From sequence record OL631257.1: DNA of 64,000 nt, one strand, 5' to 3'. Shown here one piece after another: positions 13,972-26,756 of this stretch (the stretch's first letter is position 1; the number at the start of each line of letters is the position of its first letter). A program made the translations under genes and the position numbers. The notes under the pieces were generated by a model. It saw nothing but the letters and a program-made list of their open reading frames with translations. It ran no database searches and was not told where the DNA came from. The DNA comes from Escherichia phage ECCR664.

Positions 13972-14274
13972 TTATTTACCTTTAATTACTTTAGCTGCTT
14001 CGATAGCCGCTTGCTGAAGGTCATCCATAGACATACCGAATTTAGAAGCAAAGTTATCAATTTTCTTTTCAACAGCATTCAAAGGCTTGGCCTGTTTACC
14101 TTCATTAGCGCCAGGAAGAGCGAGAATACGCTCTTTGTCAATATAAAGGCTTACAAGTTTCTTACGGTCTTTATCGGACAAATCGTGAAATGAATGGGCC
14201 TTTTTATTTATAGCGGCTTCTAATTTACCTGCACTCACTCGCGCTTCAGTAATAAATTCTTGATATGTTTTCAT
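13972..14274 (-). CDS. ipII: internal protein (IPII-like) with capsid-targeting N-terminus
   Basis: N-terminal MKTYQEFITEARV, 100 aa. Confidence 0.7.
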   Translation of the reverse strand: MKTYQEFITEARVSAGKLEAAINKKAHSFHDLSDKDRKKLVSLYIDKERILALPGANEGKQAKPLNAVEKKIDNFASKFGMSMDDLQQAAIEAAKVIKGK

Positions 14275-14365
14275 TTTTGTTTCCTTGTTTGTTTTGATAG
14301 AGTAATTATACCATATTAATACTTAAGCGTAAACTGTTTAAGCTTTACCATCGCAACCTTTTTCC

Positions 14366-14778
14366 TTAGTAAATTGATTTACCATAGTATTTGTACCAAG
14401 TAGGACGTTGAGCAATTTTTTCATCTAAACGAGCTTGACTTATCGCAATGGACGCTTCGGTCGGGACATAATTATTACGAAATTCGGCAGGGATGTCGGA
14501 AATATCTTGGACAGTCGTGTCCTTGATTTTGAAACCACGTTTCAAGCATTCAGCGATTAGCTCGATTTGACGTAAACGTAAAAATTCGAGTTTGTCGTAA
14601 AGAATGTTACATGACCTGTGCCTAAGATAAATGTCGGGGAGATTTTAAAATCCTTTACACGTTTACCGTTTTGAACATGTTTACGGACTGCACCAAATAT
14701 GCGTGGTAATTCACGATACTCAGCCATAAGATGTTGGTCGGTCAGTTCAGAAACAAGTGTTAAATTGATACGAGTCAT
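14366..14778 (-). CDS. denV: endonuclease V (pyrimidine dimer glycosylase), one frameshift
   Basis: [34 protein letters not shown]…[16 protein letters not shown] matches T4 DenV; C-terminus …[10 protein letters not shown] recovered in shifted frame. Confidence 0.9.
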
Positions 14779-14783
14779 AATTT

Positions 14784-14836
14784 CCTCCAAGTAGTTGATG
14801 AATGTATAGTATCAAAACCCTTGGAGGAAGTAAACA
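14784..14836 (-). promoter_or_regulatory. early promoter motif with inverted repeat CCTCCAAG/CTTGGAGG, upstream of denV
   Basis: GTTTAC at 14830-14835 (minus). Confidence 0.5.
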
Positions 14837-15118
14837 CTATTTTTCTGAAGCGCCTGAAATATATTTTTCAAGACGTTGTTTCATCAGCGAGCCGTTCTTA
14901 GCGATTTCTTCCGGTTTATCACACATACGCAACAAGGCTTCAAGCTTAACGATATCACTGGTGCGCTCAAATTTGCGAGTATCTATCTTACTAGCAAGTT
15001 CAGAAATACGTGCTAATAGACTTTCAGCTTCAACCAAAGCTGCACCTAGCTTAGTTGCAAATGTGTCAGTAGCTTCGTTAAGAATAGATTCTGATAAAAA
15101 TTCACTATATGTTTTCAT
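14837..15118 (-). CDS. internal protein (IPIII-position) with capsid-targeting N-terminus
   Basis: [16 protein letters not shown]… N-terminus; immediately downstream of e. Confidence 0.6.
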
Positions 15119-15603
15119 ATATACGCTTTCCAAGTTCCTGTTTTAAATGTTGAGATTACGCGTTTCGCGCGATTAGGTGTCTGACGATACCATTTAGATT
15201 GGGCTAGATTTACTGCCGCTTCATCCCAACGTTTCTGTTGAAGCATACGAAGAGAATTAGTAAAACCGGCGACGCCTGCTACTCCCATTTGGAAGACCAT
15301 ATTGACCAATGCACATCGACGAACCGCGTCTAAAGAATCATACACCGGTTTAAGTTTAGCATTACCCAAGATTCCGCGAACGGCTTTATCAACATCTTCA
15401 TTAAATAGCTTTTCAGCCTCATCAAGGGTAATTGTACCGTTACATTTACGGCCGACCATTCTGTCAAGTTCAGCTTTAGCTACGGCTAAAGACGGGTTCT
15501 TTGTTACCAAATGGCCTATGCCAATAGTCCAAAAGCCTTCGGTGTCTTTGTATAAAGACAGTCTAAGACCTTCGTCATTACGAAGCATTTCAAATATATT
15601 CAT
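15115..15603 (-). CDS. e: lysozyme (endolysin)
   Basis: [15 protein letters not shown]…[12 protein letters not shown]…[25 protein letters not shown]… closely matches T4 lysozyme. Confidence 0.95.
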
Positions 15604-15637
15604 AATACCTCCCACGTTTATAGGAGGTATTTATTAC

Positions 15638-16096
15638 TTATAGGAGGGTAGTGAGCACCTTATATAATGATTTGCCCATTACATATTCCCATTGAGAAGG
15701 TTTAATTAAAGCGAATGCATCAAATTCAGGAATCTGACGTCCGTCTGGGAATGTATGATAGGAATTACAAACACTGTTTCTGAATTGCTCGTGCTCTACA
15801 GGGATGGTATATAGGAACAGATGAATATTCTTATTGTCTGAGTAATGATGTTCACCTAGGTCTTTCAGGAAGGCAGGGTCATATTGTGTAAACCCAGTTT
15901 CTTCTTCGCATTCACGAATAGCGGCTTCAATAGGAGATTCGCCAGGTTCGACACGGCCTTTAGGAATATCCCACCGATGAGCTAAAGAACCTTTAGGACG
16001 AGAACCAGTTACACGTCCCATGAATAATTCTTTATCTTTTGTCATGAAGATAATACCGGCTGATAGTTCTTTCACTTTATTTTTCTTACTCATCAT
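15638..16096 (-). CDS. nudE: Nudix hydrolase
   Basis: Nudix box GRVEPGESPIEAAIRECEEETG; position next to e as in T4. Confidence 0.85.
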   Translation of the reverse strand: MMSKKNKVKELSAGIIFMTKDKELFMGRVTGSRPKGSLAHRWDIPKGRVEPGESPIEAAIRECEEETGFTQYDPAFLKDLGEHHYSDNKNIHLFLYTIPVEHEQFRNSVCNSYHTFPDGRQIPEFDAFALIKPSQWEYVMGKSLYKVLTTLL

Positions 16097-16317
16097 CTCG
16101 GTCCCATGATTTGGCCATTAATTCGGACATAAATTCTTCAATACGCGTTTCTTTAGATGGACTTTCACTATTAGAGACCGCGAGTTTGTAATCTGCAATA
16201 GGACGGAACAAATCAAGGTCCATATTAAGATCGTCTTTGATTTTTCTTCTGACACATCTTTATCATATGTGTACAGATAACTATCACACGATTCTGATTT
16301 AATGTAAATTGCTATAC

Positions 16318-16809
16318 TCATCTCAAATTCCTGCATTCAGTTATAAAACGTTCAACTTCATTATTCTTGGCCTTTATCTTGTCTTTACGTTCCTGTAAAC
16401 TACTTTTAACAAGATTAATAATGATGGCGGCGGTACCGCCGCCAATGATGCCACCAACAACACTTATGATACTAGATGCTAATAAGATAGCAATAATATC
16501 AACAAAACCGAAAGAACTAACCTTAGTACTAAAAAACCATACCGACGGTACAAATATAATCCATCCTGTTATCCATTGGCACTTATTGAAAAACTTTTCA
16601 AGCTCAGCTTGAGTTGTTCGTATTACTTCATCGATAGGTTGATATCCATTAATGTATCTGTTCACGATAATACCTGCTGGCTGGTCGATTTTAAATTCTT
16701 GACAAATACGTTTCACTAAGTAGGATGGACATCCTGTCCAATCCACTGAATAGTACGAAATACCTTCATTGTCATCGTCAATATTAGACCAATATGTTTT
16801 GTTAATCAT
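16318..16809 (-). CDS. membrane protein
   Basis: hydrophobic segment IIAILLASSIISVVGGIIGGGTAAIIINL. Confidence 0.4.
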   Translation of the reverse strand: MINKTYWSNIDDDNEGISYYSVDWTGCPSYLVKRICQEFKIDQPAGIIVNRYINGYQPIDEVIRTTQAELEKFFNKCQWITGWIIFVPSVWFFSTKVSSFGFVDIIAILLASSIISVVGGIIGGGTAAIIINLVKSSLQERKDKIKAKNNEVERFITECRNLR

Positions 16810-17494
16810 TACCAGCCTTCCATAGGGAATTCCAGATAAACTTGGGCATTGACACGAATTTCATTGGTAATCTTTTTAACTCGGTCTGTATTACGAGATA
16901 CACGTCCGAACCAACGCCATCCATTACTAATTGCACGAGAACCAGTGTGCCATGTTTGCCAATCGAACTGAAGAAGAGTACGGTCTGGAGCTTCCCATTT
17001 CTCTAGTTCACCTTTTTCAATTTTTCGAGGACTTCTTTGTGCCATTGGCGATAGATAAGTTCGCCATCAGGAATCTGGCTGAACTCTGCAGTTCCTGTTG
17101 CAAAATGAGTAGGACACACATCAGCGTTAACAAGGCCAAGAATATGTTCAGACAAATAGCGAGGATTGTCATAGTCGGGTTGTCCTGCAGTAATAAAGTG
17201 TTGACCAACCGGAATATCCGGGCGTGGTACATCGTCATGGTGATAACCTGGGATAGCAGGGTACCAACCAGGCATCAGCATGTGGACTCGTGAATCAAAT
17301 ACAACCTGGTCGGTGTTCCAATCATCTGGCAAGTTCATAATGAAGCTGCGAGTAATAGGACCGCCGTTATTATAAGCAAATTCTAAACTACAGTTGAAGA
17401 ACATAGGCTCGTTCTTGATTTTATCATTAGAAATACCGCCGGCAAAACCACCTACTGCACGAGCTTGACTATTAAACACTTTAGAACTATTCAT
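16809..17494 (-). CDS. hypothetical protein (~228 aa), frameshift near 17030
   Basis: ORFs 17003..17494 and 16809..17045 overlap in different frames. Confidence 0.4.
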
Positions 17495-17857
17495 ATTATT
17501 TTCCTCGACATTCTTTAATGAAATTTTCTAGATTGGTAGATTCAATAGCTTTTTACGAGCTTCTGAGTGTTCTTCTTCTGACAATTTACGTTTATAATTG
17601 ACCCAGACATTATGGTCGAAACCAGTCGTGGCATATAATAACAATGCTCCAACGAATAGCAAAAACGGCGATAAGAATACAAAACCAGGAACACCATCCA
17701 TATCGTAAGCCTTTTGTAATACTGCAACAGAAAGAGTTACGTAAAAGGTGATGCAAGTATTGTTAAAAGACCAATTCGGTTGGTTTCTGTTAATTTCATA
17801 ATATTCTCCTCATGTTTTAATAGGACTACTATAATATAGCCCTATCAGTTTGTACAC

Positions 17858-18058
17858 TTATTTTGACATTTCTTCGATGTCACGACGATACCCATCACGA
17901 ACTTCACGAAGAGCTTCAAGGCCACACATAGGCTCGATACCAGTAATGTGAACTTGATTAATCTGATACTCTACATCTTCTAACTGAGCGAAAACATAAC
18001 GACGTTCTGCTGCACAACCAGGTTTAGCTTTACCGAAACGTTTATTCAAAGTAGTCAT
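17858..18058 (-). CDS. hypothetical protein ~66 aa
   Basis: ORF 17858..18076, likely start MTTLNK. Confidence 0.35.
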   Translation of the reverse strand: MTTLNKRFGKAKPGCAAERRYVFAQLEDVEYQINQVHITGIEPMCGLEALREVRDGYRRDIEEMSK

Positions 18059-18138
18059 TTTTATATCTCCATTCACTCATTTGTTTTGATAGGTCTATAG
18101 TATCAACAACTACAGACCTTGTAAACAGTTTTGTGAAA

Positions 18139-19094
18139 TTATTTGAAAGGTTTTACCATATGGAAATTTTGTTTGAAACGTTTTACGTAATCGTCATGTC
18201 CTAAGCTTTGGTACATACTTACTACTTTGCTGTAGTTTTCCCAGGCGTATTCACGGAACCAACCGGAGGTGATGCTTGTGCAGACTTTTTCTAATGCCAT
18301 CATGAAACTGGCTTCAGGGTTAATTTCAAAGTTATTAGGAATCTGAGAACGTTCTAATGCTAGTACACATGATTCTTCGTATACACCGGCCAATTTGACC
18401 ATTTCTGGTAATGATTCGAACTTCTCGCGTGAGGTCATGACTTCAGAACCATCTTTCATGTAAAACGTATAAGCAGGGCGGTCTGTTAGTGCAATGGCTT
18501 CGTGAATAGTATCATGGTCATATGTATAGATGTCATCTTTAAAGAATGCGCTTTTAGAAGTGTCAAGAACCGGGTGAGCATAGTTCAAGGTTTCTTTCTG
18601 GCGTTTCAGCATAATTTCAGTAAGTTCATCGTTCAGTGTAACACCTTTACCACGAAGATACTGAATATGGTTCATAGTCTTTAAAAGAATGGATTATTTT
18701 TCTTGAAACGATGGGACATCTTAATTGCAAGACACATCTCAGGAGTTGCCCAGTAAAACCCGTTCAAACGGTCTTTAGTCAAATTTTTCTTGGCATATTT
18801 TAAAAGGTCATAAGAAGACGTGAAATCTTCAGGAGTGAGTTCACCGACTAATTCACGGACATTAGTGATTGCCGGAACAATATATGCTTCAAAATGAGTT
18901 TCGCGTCCATTATGGAAGCATTTGAAAACTTGGACATCAGGGTTATCTTGGTGGACATATACACCCATCATTTGATTTTTGAATGCATTCCAAGAACCTT
19001 GGTCTGCAATAAAGTCCCAGTCACTATTTTTGATAGCGTTAGAATCAATAAGTCCGTGATAGTGAAGTGCACGAGAACCAATAACTAACATCAT
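18139..19094 (-). CDS. hypothetical protein (~315 aa), frameshift near 18680
   Basis: ORFs 18681..19094 and 18139..18675 adjacent in different frames. Confidence 0.4.
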
Positions 19095-19375
19095 AATATT
19101 TTCCTCGGATTAATTAACTTAAATTTCGCGACATGCGATATTATATTCATCCCAGAGGTCGTCATGTGAAGCCTCTACCAATGGAACGATTGTACCGTTT
19201 ATGTCTTCATTATAAGGACAAATTGTACAGTGCGCATCTTCGAATCGGATGCCTTTGTGTTCAGATTTTTATAACGCATATCGAATATCTTTGCAAACTT
19301 TTCACGAGTAATGGTTTTAGCAACCACTTTAGTTCCGATACTTTCGTAATAAATCATTGTGGACTCCATTTAATT

Positions 19376-19416
19376 TGATAGGACTACTATAACATAGCCC
19401 TATCTTGTTGTAAACT
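19376..19416 (-). promoter_or_regulatory. early promoter motif with GATAGGACTA-type inverted repeat
   Basis: GTTTAC at 19410-19415 (minus). Confidence 0.5.
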
Positions 19417-19419
19417 GTT

Positions 19420-19617
19420 TTAGCAAGAATAACTAGATGATACCCAGCCTTGAACAGTAATACTATTATTTGATACCGAGATTGCGTTCTGGAGATTCAG
19501 ACCTGCGTTATCTTCAATCCATAATGTAACTTCTTCGCGTTCTTCTGTTGCAATTTGGAACAGGTTTTCCAGGGCAGCTACTGCCGTACGTACAGCACAA
19601 TCTAATTCACGAGACAT
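19420..19617 (-). CDS. small protein, paralog family member (C-terminal …GWVSSSYSC)
   Basis: shares C-terminal G-W-V-S-S-S-x-x-C with the two neighbours. Confidence 0.45.
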   Translation of the reverse strand: MSRELDCAVRTAVAALENLFQIATEEREEVTLWIEDNAGLNLQNAISVSNNSITVQGWVSSSYSC

Positions 19618-19622
19618 ATGAT

Positions 19623-19898
19623 TTCCTTAGCAAGTGTGAGAAGATGCAACCCAACCACCAGTTTCGAGGCTCAGGTTATAGTCGTATTGGTAAACGTCGG
19701 CCCATTCAGCATAGCCGTTTTTGTACAACGTTCAAGATCGGCTTTAAGATGTCCTGGCGAATGATAGGTTCCACCCATACCATAAGCTGGATACAAGTCG
19801 AATGTTGTGTTTTGTTTATCAGCAATTTCTTTGGCAGCCTCAATAGCTGCATAGATTTTTGCTACGGCTTCAGCCAGTTCGGTTTGTTCTTTAGACAT
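19623..19898 (-). CDS. small protein, paralog family member (frameshifted; C-terminus …GGWVASSHTC recovered in shifted frame)
   Basis: ORF 19671..19898 plus shifted continuation. Confidence 0.4.
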
Positions 19899-19907
19899 AA
19901 TGATTCC

Positions 19908-20213
19908 TTAGCACAACGCAGAAGACGAAACCCAAGCACCTTCAGTAATAACGTAACCATTACCTTCACGCTTAACATCGCCACCATTATTTTCAATTTC
20001 ATTTTTCATCCATTGGGATACGATTTCACCCTTAGGATAATAAGTACGACCGCTACCATAATCACCTACAGAAAATGATACGGCATATTGGTCTGCGATC
20101 TTTGTTGCTTCTTCTTCGATACGTTCAGCTTGATTCAGAAGTTTATAAATTGCATCTGAAGCGGATTTGGCATCATTAAACTCTGGTACTTTAATTTCAA
20201 TAATCTTACTCAT
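19908..20213 (-). CDS. small protein, paralog family member (C-terminal …GAWVSSSALC)
   Basis: ORF 101 aa. Confidence 0.45.
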   Translation of the reverse strand: MSKIIEIKVPEFNDAKSASDAIYKLLNQAERIEEEATKIADQYAVSFSVGDYGSGRTYYPKGEIVSQWMKNEIENNGGDVKREGNGYVITEGAWVSSSALC

Positions 20214-20569
20214 TTTCTACATTCCTTAATAAAGTTTTCTATTGTTTCATTTTCACGTCTAGCTAGGAGTTCATTATAACTAATCATTTGAGAAGCGTAA
20301 ACCTTTTTATTTTTCTTGTTATGGTTTATAAAATCGTAGTAAAAATAGACTACAGTACAAAAGGATGCGATGGATGCAAAGGCTTGGGTGTACCGTAAGT
20401 CCTGCCATTGGTCTGTGAATCCACCGGTGTTCCCTATAAATCCTAACACAACCCCGTCAATAAGAAATCCAACTAATCCAAAGGCAAATCCCATGCCAAT
20501 ACTCATAATAAAAATTAGAATGTTCTCACCAAGAGACGGCCATACGGTTAAGAGTTGAGGCTTTTGCAT
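20210..20569 (-). CDS. membrane protein
   Basis: hydrophobic helices ILIFIMSIGMGFAFGLVGFLIDGVVLGFIG. Confidence 0.45.
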   Translation of the reverse strand: MQKPQLLTVWPSLGENILIFIMSIGMGFAFGLVGFLIDGVVLGFIGNTGGFTDQWQDLRYTQAFASIASFCTVVYFYYDFINHNKKNKKVYASQMISYNELLARRENETIENFIKECRK

Positions 20570-20973
20570 CTTATTTCCTTAACGAATTCCATAGCTTCTT
20601 CATATTCATACTTTTTAACAGCTTCGTCATACTGAGCTTGGGCTTTTGCGCACTGAACTTTCCACTCACGAACTCGAGCTCTGTGATGACGTCCTTGGTA
20701 CCAATATCCCACCCAGTTAATAGGCATTAATAAAAACGGTACAATAAGTGGTGCGACGAACATTAATGAAAATGCTGCATCAGACGATATAACTTCACTA
20801 GAATCTAAAACAGCTCCTATAATCATAAAGATTAAAAATGCTAAAGCCAAAATAGGGCCAAATAGTACTTCGTTTGGGATTAATTTACGTTTGTATTCGT
20901 ATGCCCAGGGCTTACTCGGCATGTATAGGGTTGGCTTTGACATATTCTCTACATTCCATAATAAATTGCTCAA
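20548..20973 (-). CDS. membrane protein
   Basis: hydrophobic helices LFGPILALAFLIFMIIGAV and FSLMFVAPLIVPFLLMPI. Confidence 0.45.
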   Translation of the reverse strand: MSNLLWNVENMSKPTLYMPSKPWAYEYKRKLIPNEVLFGPILALAFLIFMIIGAVLDSSEVISSDAAFSLMFVAPLIVPFLLMPINWVGYWYQGRHHRARVREWKVQCAKAQAQYDEAVKKYEYEEAMEFVKEIRCKSLNS

Positions 20974-21096
20974 GGATTAAATTGTTAGTGAAATTAGGAC
21001 TAACAACCATAGTTTCATAAAGCGCATCAATAGCACTTAAAGCATCAACTCTTTTAAGCAAAGGCTTGCCTTCATACATAGTTTCAGAATCGACGA

Positions 21097-21534
21097 TTAA
21101 CGTAAAGTAATATTTTTATTATCGACTAGAACTTCTGTGTCAATATAAAACATATTAGACCTCAGAAGCTTATCTCTAAAACCGTAATAATCTTCTGAAC
21201 GTTCACTGATATATTCCCATTCAGTGTTTAAACAACAAACAGACCACGTAGGAGCAACGAAATCAGTGAATCTAATATCATGGTCTGCAACTAGTTTAGC
21301 AATAGCTCCGATATCATGAATCATAATACCTGGGGCTAATAAAGATTTTCTGCTATGGCTAGCCGTTTTCTCGGTGGTCTCATAAGAAGACGACCAGTAC
21401 CATTTACGTCCAGTTGCAACATATCGTAATGAATCAACTAAAGACGTAGGTGGATTTACCTTATCTCGGAACTCTTCGAACATTGAGTCAATATCATTAT
21501 TTTGGTTTCGCATGTTAACTCCTTTATTATCCAA
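21097..21534 (-). CDS. hypothetical protein
   Basis: ORF 145 aa. Confidence 0.4.
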   Translation of the reverse strand: MDNKGVNMRNQNNDIDSMFEEFRDKVNPPTSLVDSLRYVATGRKWYWSSSYETTEKTASHSRKSLLAPGIMIHDIGAIAKLVADHDIRFTDFVAPTWSVCCLNTEWEYISERSEDYYGFRDKLLRSNMFYIDTEVLVDNKNITLR

Positions 21535-21562
21535 AAGGAGGACCGGAGTCCTCCGTATTATT

Positions 21563-22156
21563 TTATTTCAAAGAGTTAATATATTCTTGTACATCGGCAG
21601 AAGTGGTTTCGACACCGGCTGGAGTACCATTGAACGTTTCAACACGAGTCAGAGTGTCTTCGATATCAACCTTAGTCAGTGCAGCAATTTCAATCACATC
21701 ATCAGCCGTAGAGATACCAAGGGCATTGGCTGCTCGAGTTTCACGAATGTATTCGAGTTTGATTGCCAGATTCTGACGAGCATCATCAAGTTCAACCACC
21801 TTACGAGCAATTTCAATTCGCATAGCGGCATACCCGTCAGCTTTTGTATTAAGTTGTTCGGCAGTTCGACGATACAAAAGACCAAGCTTAGCATGCATGG
21901 TAACATCTTGTCCTTCAGCCAGGAGCTTACGAATTTCACGTTCCTTAGAAGCGGCTTGCTTATTCTTTTCAATAACAAGTTCGCGAATACGTTTTTCTTC
22001 ATTAATAGATTTAACAGAAGCCGTTTTTAGTTCTTTGATTTGGGTAATCAACTTATCTGCAGCTGCGTTATACTGTTCTTCGACAGTCAGATTTTTAGCC
22101 ATAGCAGTACCCAGTTTAGTGCGGATGAATTCAACAAGTTTCTTCAGTGTGTTCAT
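21563..22156 (-). CDS. coiled-coil protein (weak PspA/IM30-like resemblance, not established)
   Basis: ~197 aa, heptad-rich K/E/A/R composition. Confidence 0.4.
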
Positions 22157-22504
22157 ATTATTACCTTTCAATTGGTGGTTTATTATCCAACGAGAGTATT
22201 ATACTCTGCTCTAAAGAGTTTGTACACTTATTTGTACGAATTAATAATCTCTTCCATTTTATCCAGAACATGGATATCGATTATACGAGGAAGTGCCGAA
22301 AGATTAGAACCGTCGAAAGATTTAAGGTCTTCCAAAATAATATTTTCAATGGCCTTTAAAGCTTCCGCAGATTCTGACGCAGAATTAAATTCAGGAATTT
22401 CTCCAAAAGACGTAAGAATGAACCAAAGTATTCTGCGGCGATTTCTTTAGCTTGTTCGATATCAGACTTAAACATTTTGTTTTCCTCATTTGTTGGTGGA
22501 GTAA

Positions 22505-22759
22505 TCATATCACCATCCTTGGCGTTTGTACATTATTTTTAATCAAGTTGACATAAAATTCTGCATCTTCAGGGTGCATGCCTTCACAGTATTCTTCAAC
22601 CATGAACTTCTTAACAGCTTCATAAGGACCACTCAGATTAAGCTCAGTTGTCCAGAACTTGGAATCTTGGACCGAATCGATACGAACGTCAGGGTGACGG
22701 TTGCGAATAACTTCTTCGGTGTATTCATAATCAACGACATCAATACTAACTGTAGCCAT
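22505..22759 (-). CDS. hypothetical protein 84 aa
   Basis: ORF. Confidence 0.4.
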   Translation of the reverse strand: MATVSIDVVDYEYTEEVIRNRHPDVRIDSVQDSKFWTTELNLSGPYEAVKKFMVEEYCEGMHPEDAEFYVNLIKNNVQTPRMVI

Positions 22760-23424
22760 TTTGTTTTCCTCTTGATTTGATGTGATTACTATAACATAAA
22801 CTTACTTAGATGTAAATTATTTCAACGTCACCTTTAGCGGCTTTATAACCTTCAGCCCAAGATACAACAGAGTTTTTATCTGAGGATTCAAATTCAGGCA
22901 TTGGACTTTCACCAATATTCACACAGTATGTTTCTTCATTTTCATCGAACCAAATAATTAAAGTAGTCATTTTGTTTACTCCTTTGTAGTTGATAAGTCT
23001 ATAGTATCACCATCCTTGGTGCTTGTACATCATTATTTTAATTTTTCCAACTTAACAACTTGTAGTATCCTTCATTCGTACGTGGTTTATCCCAAAAATA
23101 CTAATATATGATTCGCTGTCAATAGAAGTCGCCGGGTTTTTCTCTACCGTAAGACCTTCACTTTCCAGCCATTCAATAGTATTTGCGCATAAATCAGAAG
23201 AACACCTCATCGGGAACCGGCAAGATTTTTCACCTTTAGCTGCAGTGTTATACATCTTTTCTAAAATACGCTTTTGCACGTTTTTAAAAATAGTTTCAGC
23301 AGATTCTTCAGATTTTTATTCAGTTCAGTGTAAAGACTCATACTATTCTCCTCATGTTTTAATAGGACTATAGTAACACATCCAGGGAAGAAGTAAACAA
23401 CTTTTTCAGTAAGTTATAGACCCC

Positions 23425-23447
23425 TAAAGGGGCCCGAAGGTCCCCAT
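23425..23447 (-). terminator. stem-loop downstream of the IP-like gene; related in sequence to the 5010-5035 hairpin
   Basis: CCCCTAAAGGGGCCCGAAGGTCCCCA, imperfect stem. Confidence 0.35.
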
Positions 23448-23450
23448 TCT

Positions 23451-24069
23451 TTACTTACGAGTTTTTGCATACTGAGCAGCGTCAGCAGCCAAACGACCTG
23501 CCTGACGAAGTTTTTCTTTAATCGCATCGTGAAGTGGTTGAGTATACTTCAAACCTTCGATAGTCAAATAAAGACGATAAAGGTCTGGGGTATCAAGGTT
23601 GTTGATATGTTGGCCATTACGAAGACTGTTGAATTCACGAACGAGTGAAGATGTATCGGATTCAATATCACGAACAAGCGAAGATAGTTGTTTATATTTT
23701 TTTCCAGGCTAGAAGTATCAAACTTAAGAGCAGGAGCTTTAGGAGTTGCTTTTACTTCCGGCTTAGGCTCAGGTTTTGCTTTAGGGGCCGCAGGTTTAGG
23801 AACGGTAGGAGCAGGTTTTACTTTAGGCGAACCCGATTTAGCAGAAACACCACCACTAACAATATCTTTGAATGCTTTAGAAGCTCTGTAATATTCTTTT
23901 GGGTGGAAGTGTCGATACCGTACATGGCTTGAACGTTTTTGAAAAACTCTGTACTAGTTTTTGTACCAGAAATAGCATCGTAAGCAGCTTGCCATTTCTC
24001 TTTTGTCATACGTACACCGGCTTCGGTGATTACTTCCGTTTCGGCTAAAAATTCATTAAAAGTATACAT
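23451..24069 (-). CDS. internal-protein-like gene with capsid-targeting N-terminus and Pro/Lys/Ala-rich linker; at least two frameshifts
   Basis: MYTFNEFLAETEV N-terminus; shifted frames give …KPAPTVPKPAAPKAKPEPKPEVK… and a C-terminus ending …AAQYAKTRK; T7 run at ~23694-23703. Confidence 0.5.
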
Positions 24070-24104
24070 TGATGGTCCTTAGAAAGTGGGTTTATTGTTT
24101 ACTA

Positions 24105-24112
24105 TATTTATA
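24105..24112 (-). promoter_or_regulatory. late promoter TATAAATA on minus strand upstream of the IP-like gene
   Basis: TATTTATA on plus strand ~36 nt upstream of start at 24069. Confidence 0.5.
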
Positions 24113-24113
24113 C

Positions 24114-24142
24114 AAAAAGCCCCAACCTTTCGGAAGGGGCTA
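24114..24142 (-). terminator. rho-independent terminator
   Basis: AAAAAGCCCCAACCTTTCGGAAGGGGCT, same sequence as 8153-8181. Confidence 0.65.
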
Positions 24143-24164
24143 TATACCTTGTCGGGGTTTCCAC

Positions 24165-24440
24165 CTACTAAGGCAAGTGTTTGTACGAAACGCCGGGATT
24201 CGAACCCGGTTATTAAGCAGTTGACGCTACTCAATATTTTTAAAGGCCATATCTCGACCATATCCGAACGTTCCGTCAAAAACGCTACTCGGCTTACGGC
24301 AAAGATATTTCCTCGAATCGATAATTCTGTGCGCCGTTTCTGCTGTGATGTAAGGGGATATTAACGAATCATAAAGATTTATTAAGACCAGTCCTTACTC
24401 AGGGAACATCAGTCCGACGACTTGCCGGTAGCGACCCGGC
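24165..24440 (-). ncRNA. putative tRNA-like/stable small RNA region (cf. T4 species 1/2 RNAs)
   Basis: minus-strand T-arm-like CCGGGTTCGAATCCCGG at ~24189-24210 with no protein-coding frame; boundaries not determined. Confidence 0.3.
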
Positions 24441-24443
24441 TTC

Positions 24444-24790
24444 TTATTTTGACATATCATCAATTTGTTCTCTACGTCTACGCCATAGATTAATTACTTC
24501 ATCAACACATTCGGCGTTTGATATATGACGGCAATAATATAATGATTCGCGTTTCTGGAACCGATGTTGCAATGGGATTTCGTTTAAAAGGTCTTTACGG
24601 TCAAAGTATTCAAAACTAGTTAACCCAGAACGGTTTTTAAGGAACTTCCAATGACCAAATTCATTTTGAACATAGACGTAATCGGCATGCTGATACAGCG
24701 AATTAATTAACCTATCGGAAATAACTGTTTCACGTTCGTTAAAATAAAACGTTAAATCATGAACTACCAGATAAACATTGCCTTTCATAT
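24444..24790 (-). CDS. hypothetical protein (~115 aa) adjacent to tRNA genes
   Basis: ORF 24444..24836; upstream part overlaps tRNA-Arg so start taken at MKGNVYLV. Confidence 0.4.
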
Positions 24791-24806
24791 TTTCCTCACT
24801 TAAAGT

Positions 24807-24883
<77 letters not shown>

Positions 24884-24889
24884 AATATA

Positions 24890-24963
24890 TGACCCAGACC
24901 AGATTCGAACTGGTAACCTTTCCCTTATGAGGGGACTGCTGCTAACCATTGAGCTACAGGGCC
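24890..24963 (-). tRNA. tRNA with CAT anticodon (Ile2 if lysidine-modified, as for T4 tRNA-Ile; otherwise Met)
   Basis: GGCCCTGTAGCTCAATGGTTAGC…CTCATAA…GGTTACCAGTTCGAATCTGG…; CCA not encoded. Confidence 0.75.
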
Positions 24964-25039
24964 TAAATAACTTTCTATTATGAAAGGCACTTTAGAGCAC
25001 CTTTGGTAATAGAGGATATGAATTAATAATAACACATAA

Positions 25040-25557
25040 TTCTTAAAGCAAATCAACCATTTTAACGGTCGGCAAAACGATTTCTTCTTCAATATAAGCA
25101 AATTCGACACGTTCAACTACACGCAAGAAATCGTAATCGTAGTATTCAGAAGCGTAGCCAAGAATATCAATAAGACCTTGAGATATCTCATCGCCTTTCA
25201 CAAAGAACAGGTCGAATACACGTGATTCATCTTCTTCAGATTTATTACCGAGGTCGACTTCGATACCAAAGACCTTTTAATGAATTCCGGATAAAGCTGG
25301 TCTGAGAACAGTCCTTCAACCAAGTATTCATAGATTAAAAGCGAGCAATCACTGAATGGTGTATTACCACAATAACGTTCGGCTTTGGTGCTAGAATGAC
25401 GGCTCTTAAATTTCTTCAAGAGATATTTAAACTGTTGGAGCTCATGCTCTTCCACTTCAAACAATGTTTTGGTTTTATAGTTGTCACCATCATTTTCATA
25501 GGTAGTGACATCAATTACGTAACCCTTAGGAATTGTACTGCCTAAACAAATATTCAT
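25040..25557 (-). CDS. hypothetical protein, frameshift near 25270
   Basis: ORF 25198..25557 with open frame continuing in another frame. Confidence 0.35.
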
Positions 25558-25561
25558 TTAC

Positions 25562-25852
25562 TCACCGTACCATATTAATGTAATTATATTCAATGCAACG
25601 TAATTTCAAAGGATTCTTGAAAATATCATATTCAAGAGGACCTTTTTCTGTTTCAATAAAGAAATCAAAGTTCACACTATTAAATTTGCGGTCTTCCCAA
25701 AGTAATTTAACCTGTGAAGATGAACGGTCGATGTAAACCTTTTCAACTTCAAAGTGGGTCAAAATACCATAGTAATCGACTAGTGCTTTAGCTGCAGCTC
25801 GGTCGCTTTCATATCCATTCTCAACGGATTTTACCTTAGCATAAAGAATCAT
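25562..25852 (-). CDS. hypothetical protein 96 aa
   Basis: ORF. Confidence 0.4.
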   Translation of the reverse strand: MILYAKVKSVENGYESDRAAAKALVDYYGILTHFEVEKVYIDRSSSQVKLLWEDRKFNSVNFDFFIETEKGPLEYDIFKNPLKLRCIEYNYINMVR

Positions 25853-26229
25853 GAATGTTCCACCATTTCAAAGGTATGAGCATCAACAATATGATACCAG
25901 TCAAAATTTTCTTCTGCGTTTTTATAAATTTCGCGAAGAGCCTCAACAGTTTTTCCTGTAGCAACAAGGTCGTCAATACCACCAAGAGGATAACAGTCAT
26001 AACCAGCAAACAGAAGGAAATTAATAGTTTCTGTAGGTTCTGGATGCAGAACTCCGTTATCGTCTACCACTTCAAAGAAAGTGTAAGAAGGAGTACAAGT
26101 TTTAATCCAGGCCCATGCTTGAGCTGCTGAATCAAACGGATTACGGAATAAACGACAATCCGGGTCTTTAGAAGGATTTGCTTCAAAATCAGCATATACA
26201 TGATATTTCATTTTACTCACCTTTTGCAA
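25849..26229 (-). CDS. hypothetical protein 126 aa
   Basis: ORF. Confidence 0.4.
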   Translation of the reverse strand: MQKVSKMKYHVYADFEANPSKDPDCRLFRNPFDSAAQAWAWIKTCTPSYTFFEVVDDNGVLHPEPTETINFLLFAGYDCYPLGGIDDLVATGKTVEALREIYKNAEENFDWYHIVDAHTFEMVEHS

Positions 26230-26419
26230 TTTTATCCATAACGATAGCGATTAAGCCGATTAGAAATGCTACTACCAATGAGATAGAATTTTCTGTTGTT
26301 GTCAGTAGTCCACAAATGAATCCTACAAACATCGAAAAACTAAAAGCCATTGAAGCAATTACTACAGCAACATTACGAATCAGTTCAGCGCGTTTCATTT
26401 TATTTCTCCATTTACTCAT
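26213..26419 (-). CDS. small membrane protein
   Basis: hydrophobic core VAVVIASMAFSFSMFVGFICGLL…LVVAFLIGLIAIV. Confidence 0.45.
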   Translation of the reverse strand: MSKWRNKMKRAELIRNVAVVIASMAFSFSMFVGFICGLLTTTENSISLVVAFLIGLIAIVMDKIAKGE

Positions 26420-26468
26420 TTGATTTGATAGGACTACTATAACATAGTCCTATCAGCATGTAAACTAC

Positions 26469-26756
26469 TTATAGAAGAGTTTTTGCAATAATTTTAAGCT
26501 GAGCTACAGAAATATGCTTAGCTTTAAACAGTGCAGTCTCTTCAGCCGGAGAGATAACAATAGTAGCGCCATCTTTCTTAGCAGACCATCCATCCCCTAA
26601 GTAAACAGTACCTTTTACTTCTTCACCATCAACCAGACTAATCATTGGTTTACCCTCACGTCCTTTATTTGTTTTAATAACTTCAGAAGTAAGGGATGCT
26701 TCGGTCAGAGTAGAAACGTTAGCAACAGGTGATATAAATTCTTTATAGGTTTTCAT
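26469..26756 (-). CDS. ipI: internal protein I-like (capsid-targeted)
   Basis: MKTYKEFISP… N-terminus, 95 aa, position upstream of 57B as in T4. Confidence 0.7.
   Translation of the reverse strand: MKTYKEFISPVANVSTLTEASLTSEVIKTNKGREGKPMISLVDGEEVKGTVYLGDGWSAKKDGATIVISPAEETALFKAKHISVAQLKIIAKTLL

Follow-up and report, generated by a model that had tools for sequence, protein, structure and literature searches.

The internal proteins of T4 and its relatives have diverse bodies and conserve only the capsid-targeting sequence (CTS) at their N-terminus (PMC3012670). In T4 IPIII, residues 4 and 7 are the main determinants of targeting, and residues 8 and 10 those of processing (PMC9026906). T4 IPI* blocks the type IV restriction enzyme GmrSD (PMC3012670), infection of ECOR17 requires T4 IPIII, which remains active without its targeting signal if produced in the host, and Bas37_0260, a new CTS protein encoded at the ipI locus, inhibits McrBC. 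Cassettes at the ipI locus encode unrelated proteins that share the CTS alone and replace each other between conserved flanks, and some of these proteins are proven anti-restriction factors. Such polymorphic ipI-locus cassettes of T-even phages were reportedly described by Repoila et al. in 1994. Here we analyzed a stretch of 64,000 nt from Escherichia phage ECCR664 (record OL631257.1), called the window below and numbered over its whole length throughout, in which four minus-strand genes begin with N-termini of this type. Three of them, ipI, ipII and an Ip5-like gene, belong to families already annotated as internal proteins, and the novelty lies in the fourth gene alone, p206 (23451..24069, minus strand), a candidate new internal protein gene whose product is probably packaged in the phage head. 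p206 is located between rnaC and e.8, a locus different from ipI, and the alternative genes found there, unlike those of the ipI locus, are distantly homologous and have a linker-plus-C-domain module in common.

Capsid-targeting N-termini in the window

The 13.4 kb around the four genes are ~96% identical, over 98% of their length, to Mosigvirus genomes (JS09, HX01, TU01 and others), and the source phage can be assigned to the RB69/JS09-like T-even phages of the genus Mosigvirus. Locally, the genes follow the order ipII, denV, a 93-aa gene, e, nudE, e.2-e.6, p206, rnaC, tRNA-Arg, tRNA-Met, tRNA.2-4, ipI, 57B and 57A. Six-frame translation of the 64 kb yields four matches to M-x-T-[YF]-x-E-F-[ILV], all at minus-strand gene starts, and no match was obtained in 200 mononucleotide shuffles of the same sequence. 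A preliminary description of the window had listed four minus-strand genes with T4-type capsid-targeting N-termini; all of its coordinates and N-termini agree with ours, and its view of the genes as internal-protein-like is supported for each of the four, three of them falling by orthology into families that already carry the name internal head proteins. Position 4 is Tyr or Phe, and position 7 is Phe, in all four products. At the motif level, the [L/I]-x-E sites (↓, predicted cut) are LTE19↓A in IPI, ITE10↓A in IPII, LSE10↓S and LNE15↓A in the Ip5-like protein, and LAE10↓T and ITE16↓A in p206. When other internal proteins were compared with the window by tblastn, the matches were confined to the CTS regions.

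Reading frame and alleles of p206

The reconstruction of p206 as a ~205-aa frame running across at least two frameshifts, proposed in the preliminary description, proved correct: there are exactly two −1 frameshifts, the frame passing from 0 to 2 to 1, and the gene encodes 206 aa once two homopolymer deletions are corrected. Compared with the intact JS09_035 (208 aa), the window is one base short in an A-run at ~23897 and in the A8 run at ~23697, the latter inside the T-run at ~23694-23703 that had been flagged beforehand, and it carries one additional in-frame deletion of 6 nt; apart from these indels, the two genes are ~98% identical. Intact alleles of 206 aa, 98% identical, are found in phages ESCO47 and LH01, a length that is consistent with their sharing the 6-nt deletion.

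Losses of single bases are common along the window. Relative to two independent relatives, JS09 and SA79RD, ~20 single-base deletions in A/T homopolymers occur per 13 kb (examples between 13900 and 27300 lie at 14599, 16241, 17021, 17550, 17743, 18683, 19266, 19718, 21113, 22536, 23313, 23697, 23897, 24242, 25275 and 26419), and by them denV (14366-14790) is split into two open reading frames (ORFs), as are several other conserved genes. This pattern is characteristic of a sequencing platform that undercalls homopolymers, and apparent pseudogenes in the window are untrustworthy. Because the same class of deletion is systematic and breaks conserved genes such as denV, the p206 frameshifts represent assembly errors and not pseudogenisation.

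The p206 family and its constant N-terminus

The p206 gene is present in 143 phage records and is labeled hypothetical in every one of them; in ~130, at least 80% of its length is matched. The protein matches phrog_2280, a family with unannotated function, over residues 1-201 (1.7e-57), and an exhaustive profile search of 1.84 billion representative proteins returned only 14 clusters for the family. Scans of p206 with Pfam, NCBIfam and PADLOC gave nothing significant, and no match below E 0.18 emerged when PDB sequences were searched with a profile. The family is narrow, with no cellular homologs from which a function could be borrowed. Its members come from Mosig-, Dhaka-, Winkler-, Teguna-, Karam-, Kanagawa- and Jiaodavirus and from an unclassified Klebsiella phage, totaled here as eight genera.

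In the family alignments, the N-terminus follows a constant M-x-x-[FY]-x-E-F-[LI]-x-E even though identity drops to 26-35%. The second site, [LI]-x-E↓[AS], is likewise kept across the family, and Glu16, which in p206 is part of the prohead-protease motif I-T-E↓A, is invariant. p206 carries F4, F7, L8 and E10, the first of which is also found in T4 IPI. The same N-terminus and linker recur in four relatives that differ elsewhere, with different C-domains in P0024 and P0026 and different N-domains in P0027 and P0029. In hhalign comparisons with the p206 family, residues 1-27 alone align with T4 IPIII and residues 1-18 alone with the Ip5-like protein. Because the similarity to IPIII and the Ip5-like protein is confined to the first 17-27 residues, p206 fits the pattern of internal proteins. 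A deeper homology between p206 and IPIII (KDEW vs K.KW) was considered and is not claimed, the hhalign probability being only 10.6%.

Architecture of the p206 protein

The predicted layout of p206 comprises a propeptide, MYTFNEFLAE↓TEVITE↓A, a helical N-domain (residues ~20-72), a cationic Pro/Ala/Lys linker (~73-114) and a helical C-domain (~115-206). An AlphaFold2 model built from a 14-sequence alignment, with a mean predicted local distance difference test (pLDDT) score of 70.6, has a confident three-helix N-domain at residues 23-71 and a confident helical C-domain at 122-206. Between the two helical domains, pLDDT falls below 50 over residues 74-113, and the propeptide region 10-19 is disordered as well. 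The Pro/Lys-rich stretch noted in the preliminary description is present as quoted, and the suggestion that it acts as a flexible linker fits both the low pLDDT and a variable length combined with steady composition: in the p206 family, the linker spans 24-51 residues, consists of 52-82% Pro+Ala+Lys and has a net charge of +3 to +9 in every case. The p206 linker is also compatible with DNA binding. Foldseek searches of BFVD with p206 returned family members only.

Following the predicted cut at E16, a protein of ~190 aa with an isoelectric point (pI) of 9.8 and a net charge of +14 would remain, similar to T4 IPIII. The precursors of p206 and IPIII are alike in size (206 vs 193 aa), pI (9.54 in both), number of Lys+Arg residues (34 in both) and type of CTS, but past residues 1-27 they have no detectable homology, their genes occupy different loci, and the Pro/Ala/Lys linker is absent from IPIII.

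Late promoter and borders of the p206 unit

A T4-type late promoter, TATAAATA, is found at 24105..24112 on the minus strand, 43 nt upstream of the p206 ATG, and is one of only three copies of this motif on that strand between 13 and 28 kb. Every other p206-type locus examined (JS98, CHI14, fHe-Yen9-01, Clarke_MM3, PG7, CIP9 and phiA85) has at a comparable distance upstream either TATAAATA or a variant with G, C or A as the first base (GATAAATA, CATAAATA, AATAAATA); across the p206-family loci of eight genera, the promoter is located 35-46 nt upstream of the gene. The same set of motifs also precedes the alternative cassette genes of SA79RD and fD1. From its promoter, p206 is predicted to be made during head assembly, by late transcription.

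On its upstream, left-hand side, the cassette is bordered by the hairpin GCCCCTTCCGAAAGGTTGGGGC followed by TTTTT (24119..24140, minus strand), which resembles a terminator, lies at the 3' end of the rnaC unit and is kept in JS98, SA79RD, fD1 and T4. The downstream border is a second terminator-like, G+C-rich hairpin just past the p206 stop codon (23429..23445, minus strand). The p206 gene can be described as a monocistronic, self-contained late unit, composed of putative terminator hairpin, TATAAATA, gene and hairpin. Next to this unit, ARAGORN called a 94-nt 'tRNA-Stop (anticodon tta)' at 24183-24276 (minus strand). A suppressor tRNA beside p206 was rejected, as this element is a near-identical ortholog of T4 rnaC (species 1 stable RNA), and Rfam reports no tRNA at 24183-24276. 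The homopolymer deletion at 24242 falls within the rnaC ortholog.

The rnaC-e.8 cassette site

The alignment of the window with SA79RD is interrupted from 23404 to 24113, where the terminator and late promoter lie, and homology resumes at 23404. At this site, SA79RD, ~70 other Mosigviruses and ~400 Tequatroviruses carry a different gene of 154-157 aa, whose product starts with MKSY[AT][EQ]FL[TN]E and contains a short Pro/Ala/Lys linker. This is the type of fD1 g140 and RB32ORF133c (pVOG5953). It resembles p206 in its locus, in its hairpin and late promoter, in its CTS-like N-terminus, in the presence of a Pro/Ala/Lys linker and in a C-terminal helical domain, but it has a different N-domain, a smaller size and a shorter linker, and the likeness is detectable at the profile level only: the two align over their full length in hhalign with a probability of 94.6% (E 7e-8) at 22% identity. 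P0027 bridges the two types, being 42% identical to fD1 g140 and matching the p206 profile at 2e-9.

Among records with at least 90% identity, ~71 carry p206 and ~72 the other cassette type, and because of these counts the rnaC-e.8 site looks dimorphic in Mosigviruses. Different cassettes share conserved nucleotide sequence in the hairpin, the promoter and the first codons. In T4 (NC_000866, 7125-7408, compared with window 23404-24140), the hairpin after rnaC is kept (GCCCCGACCGAAAGGTTGGGGCTTTTTGGTAT), and the late promoter and the gene are absent, so T4 represents an empty site. Yersinia phage fHe-Yen9-01 has both cassette types in tandem, gp154 of the p206 type (1501-2070) and gp153 of the g140 type (2080-2616). 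They are clustered after the tRNA region with gp156 (779-937), which encodes a 52-aa CTS-type product, MKTYIEFINE, and all three genes are annotated as hypothetical. We interpret the rnaC-e.8 site as a second cassette locus for internal proteins in T-even phages; we found no description of it as an internal-protein site in the accessible literature.

Virion evidence and alternative explanations

The fD1 counterpart of p206 has been detected in virions. Liquid chromatography-tandem mass spectrometry of fD1 particles lists g140 as particle-associated at the full threshold, i.e. with two or more peptides and a mean spectral count of 2 or higher, and lists in the same way the fD1 IPI (g146) and another protein with a targeting signal (g129). 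The segments of g140 predicted beyond its two candidate sites run from Ala11 onward (AVLNEASSTEIQAVAK) and from Ala16 onward (ASSTEIQAVAK). By analogy, the detection of g140 is supportive, not decisive, for the packaging of p206.

Several observations weigh against p206 being a packaged internal protein. The fD1 virion list is unspecific: among its 113 gene products are DenV, NudE and lysozyme e. Moreover, g140 and p206 are only distantly homologous. No virion proteome of a p206-bearing phage was found in the accessible literature, and the virion supplements of Jiaodavirus ValerieMcCarty, in the partial files available, contain no peptides of an N-domain homolog. Regulation differs as well, given that ipI, ipII and ipIII have early-type promoters directly upstream whereas p206 has a late one only. 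Position 2 of p206 is Tyr (Leu in many relatives), not Lys, and fold searches with p206 led to generic helical bundles without a functional match. The paper on Karamvirus ECLFM1 names no virion band for a p206-type protein, and that on Mosigvirus AV110 reports no expression data.

Read as given, the gene at 23451-24069 contains two frameshifts and meets a stop codon following codon 83, which would suit a real pseudogene and would leave the phage with only three internal-protein genes in the region. This explanation is highly improbable and was rejected: each shift results from the loss of one base in an A/T run, an error that is systematic in the window and breaks denV too, and the matches over at least 80% of the gene length in ~130 records and the close identity to JS09 speak against decay of the gene. 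Another explanation is that p206 is a late protein that works outside the virion, e.g. in assembly, in lysis timing or at the host envelope, and owes its CTS likeness to shared ancestry or to recombination at the cassette border. The lack of virion data on p206 itself favors this view, as does ATGAAA..TA...GAATTTTT, which different cassettes have in common and which could serve as an anchor for recombination instead of as a functional signal. However, residues 4, 7, 8 and 10 and the second [LI]-x-E↓[AS] are kept at the protein level in eight genera and in the domain-swapped relatives, while the remainder of p206 diverges to ~30% identity or is replaced, which argues for selection on the peptide and makes a non-virion protein unlikely.

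A role of p206 as an accessory of the prohead core or scaffold, comparable to T4 gp67, gp68 and gp22, would also involve targeting to the core and processing by gp21, but the products would be degraded or expelled before or during packaging, and p206 would neither reside in the mature head nor be injected. We regard this as quite unlikely. Because p206 contains no more than three [LI]-x-E motifs (residues 10, 16 and 186), it would escape the breakdown into small peptides that gp22 undergoes. Unlike parts of the core, the gene is dispensable and polymorphic, being absent in T4 and replaced by the other cassette in half of the Mosigviruses, and its distant homolog g140 was found in mature virions. 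Taken with the points against it, a packaged internal protein is the probable identity of p206.

The three known internal-protein genes

The ipI ortholog (26469..26756, minus strand) adjoins 57B, as T4 ipI does, which bears out its earlier placement at the ipI position. It encodes a 95-aa precursor (MKTYKEFISP...) with a predicted propeptide of residues 1-19, cut at L-T-E19↓A, and a mature part of 76 aa. Residues 20-95 match positions 1-76 of 76 of the Pfam profile PF11634 IPI_T4 with 165.5 bits (2.6e-49; Pfam gathering cut-off 25), the domain starting exactly past the predicted site, and the product also matches phrog_4363. T4 IPI has the same length and likewise a 19-residue propeptide ending in x-T-E↓A, and the mature IPI* proteins are ~92% identical, with 6 differences in 76 residues. 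The two phages differ in their DNA, which in Mosigvirus contains arabosylated 5-hydroxycytosine and in T4 glucosylated hydroxymethylcytosine (PMC13390438, PMC13326640). RB69 gp155 has already been cited as an IPI homolog (PMC13326640), and by analogy with T4 the Mosigvirus IPI* is a candidate inhibitor of GmrSD-type enzymes. Upstream of ipI lies an early-promoter-like GTTTAC...TACTAT.

The ipII ortholog (13972..14274, minus strand) encodes a protein of 100 aa with a pI of 9.5 and the predicted propeptide MKTYQEFITE↓A, and matches phrog_7857 at 4.5e-55. It is 93% identical to T4 IPII (7 differences in 100 residues) with an identical cleavage context, and its counterparts in JS09 and SA79RD are annotated as IpII. 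An early-promoter-like GTTTAC...TATAAT precedes the gene. The late-promoter motif TATAAATA occurs within the ipII coding sequence at 14205-14212 (minus strand) and is annotated as a late promoter in SA79RD; it could drive late transcription of genes 3' of ipII.

The Ip5-like internal head protein gene (14837..15118, minus strand) encodes 93 aa with the propeptide tail ↓SILNE↓A and matches phrog_3499, 'internal head protein', at 1.2e-46. The protein is acidic (pI 5.5), in contrast to the basic IPII and IPIII. It shares the CTS and the annotation with Ip5 of T2, PP01 and AR1, to whose ip5-annotated genes, and to fHoEco02, it shows 48-51% identity over 90% of its length. The gene represents a diverged allele placed directly after the lysozyme gene e, with its start codon overlapping the e stop codon (ATGA), and is predicted to be translationally coupled to e. 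The Ip5-like product is 100% identical in many Tequatroviruses (UFV13, Kha5h, p000v, phiC120) and in Mosigviruses. Overall, the Mosigvirus AV110 and T4 have only ~61% nucleotide identity, and the complete identity of the Ip5-like protein against this background suggests a recent exchange of the e-ip5 junction between the two genera.

The order ipII-denV-ip5-like-e in the window differs from denV-ipII-ipIII-e in T4; ipIII, present in T4, was not found in the window. We also compared the ipII-denV interval of the window (14275-14365) with those of its relatives (893-1381 and 886-1518 of the stretches compared). JS09 and SA79RD have Ip10 (104 aa, MKTYKEFIAES...) between ipII and denV, a gene that the window lacks. 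The same interval holds an 84-aa gene, 'MYQEFIAES...', which is full length in SA79RD, is represented in JS09 by the shorter annotated ORF125c and is likewise missing from the window. The window, JS09, SA79RD and T4 thus differ in gene content, in line with the preliminary remark that the internal-protein repertoire is polymorphic, and by these annotations and alignments internal-protein content varies even between phages that are ~96% identical.

Proposed mechanism and implications

By analogy with T4, we infer that p206 is packaged, cleaved and injected. The four proteins of the window would be directed into the assembling head by their N-terminal CTS, a segment of ~10 residues in which position 4 is aromatic and position 7 is Phe and which is expected to bind the gp22 scaffolding core of the prohead as in T4. 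The prohead protease gp21 would then cut after the Glu of [L/I]-x-E. In p206, the propeptide would be removed at L-A-E10 and/or I-T-E16, giving a basic protein of ~190 aa. As for the T4 proteins, the mature form would remain among the packaged DNA and accompany it into the host cell. An action of mature p206 on DNA or host defenses right after injection is speculative. An anti-restriction or anti-defense role has been shown for T4 IPI only and for the other three genes is deduced by analogy; on the same grounds, the Ip5-like protein and p206 are reasonable counter-defense candidates. A DNA-associated, charge-neutralizing role, as proposed for basic internal proteins, is equally possible. More tentatively, and with considerable doubt, p206 and g140 might form a previously unrecognized, modular injected superfamily at the second cassette site, in which the common cationic linker and C-module tether the protein to DNA in the head or on its way into the cell, exchangeable N-domains neutralize particular host defenses as injection takes place, and the allele present helps to set host range.

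The finding adds incrementally to a well-described theme and introduces no new principle. The targeting signal of p206 could extend the T4 protein-packaging toolbox, and the p206 and g140 families are cheap targets for deletion and host-range screening in therapeutic T-even phages. Internal proteins reach the cytoplasm ahead of all other phage proteins, and those few examined so far are counter-defense factors. The combination of a CTS-like N-terminus, [L/I]-x-E and a late promoter provides a simple rule for flagging further internal-protein candidates, which picks out the p206 family with its 143 unannotated records, a sister family of ~500 records, and a second polymorphic cassette locus.

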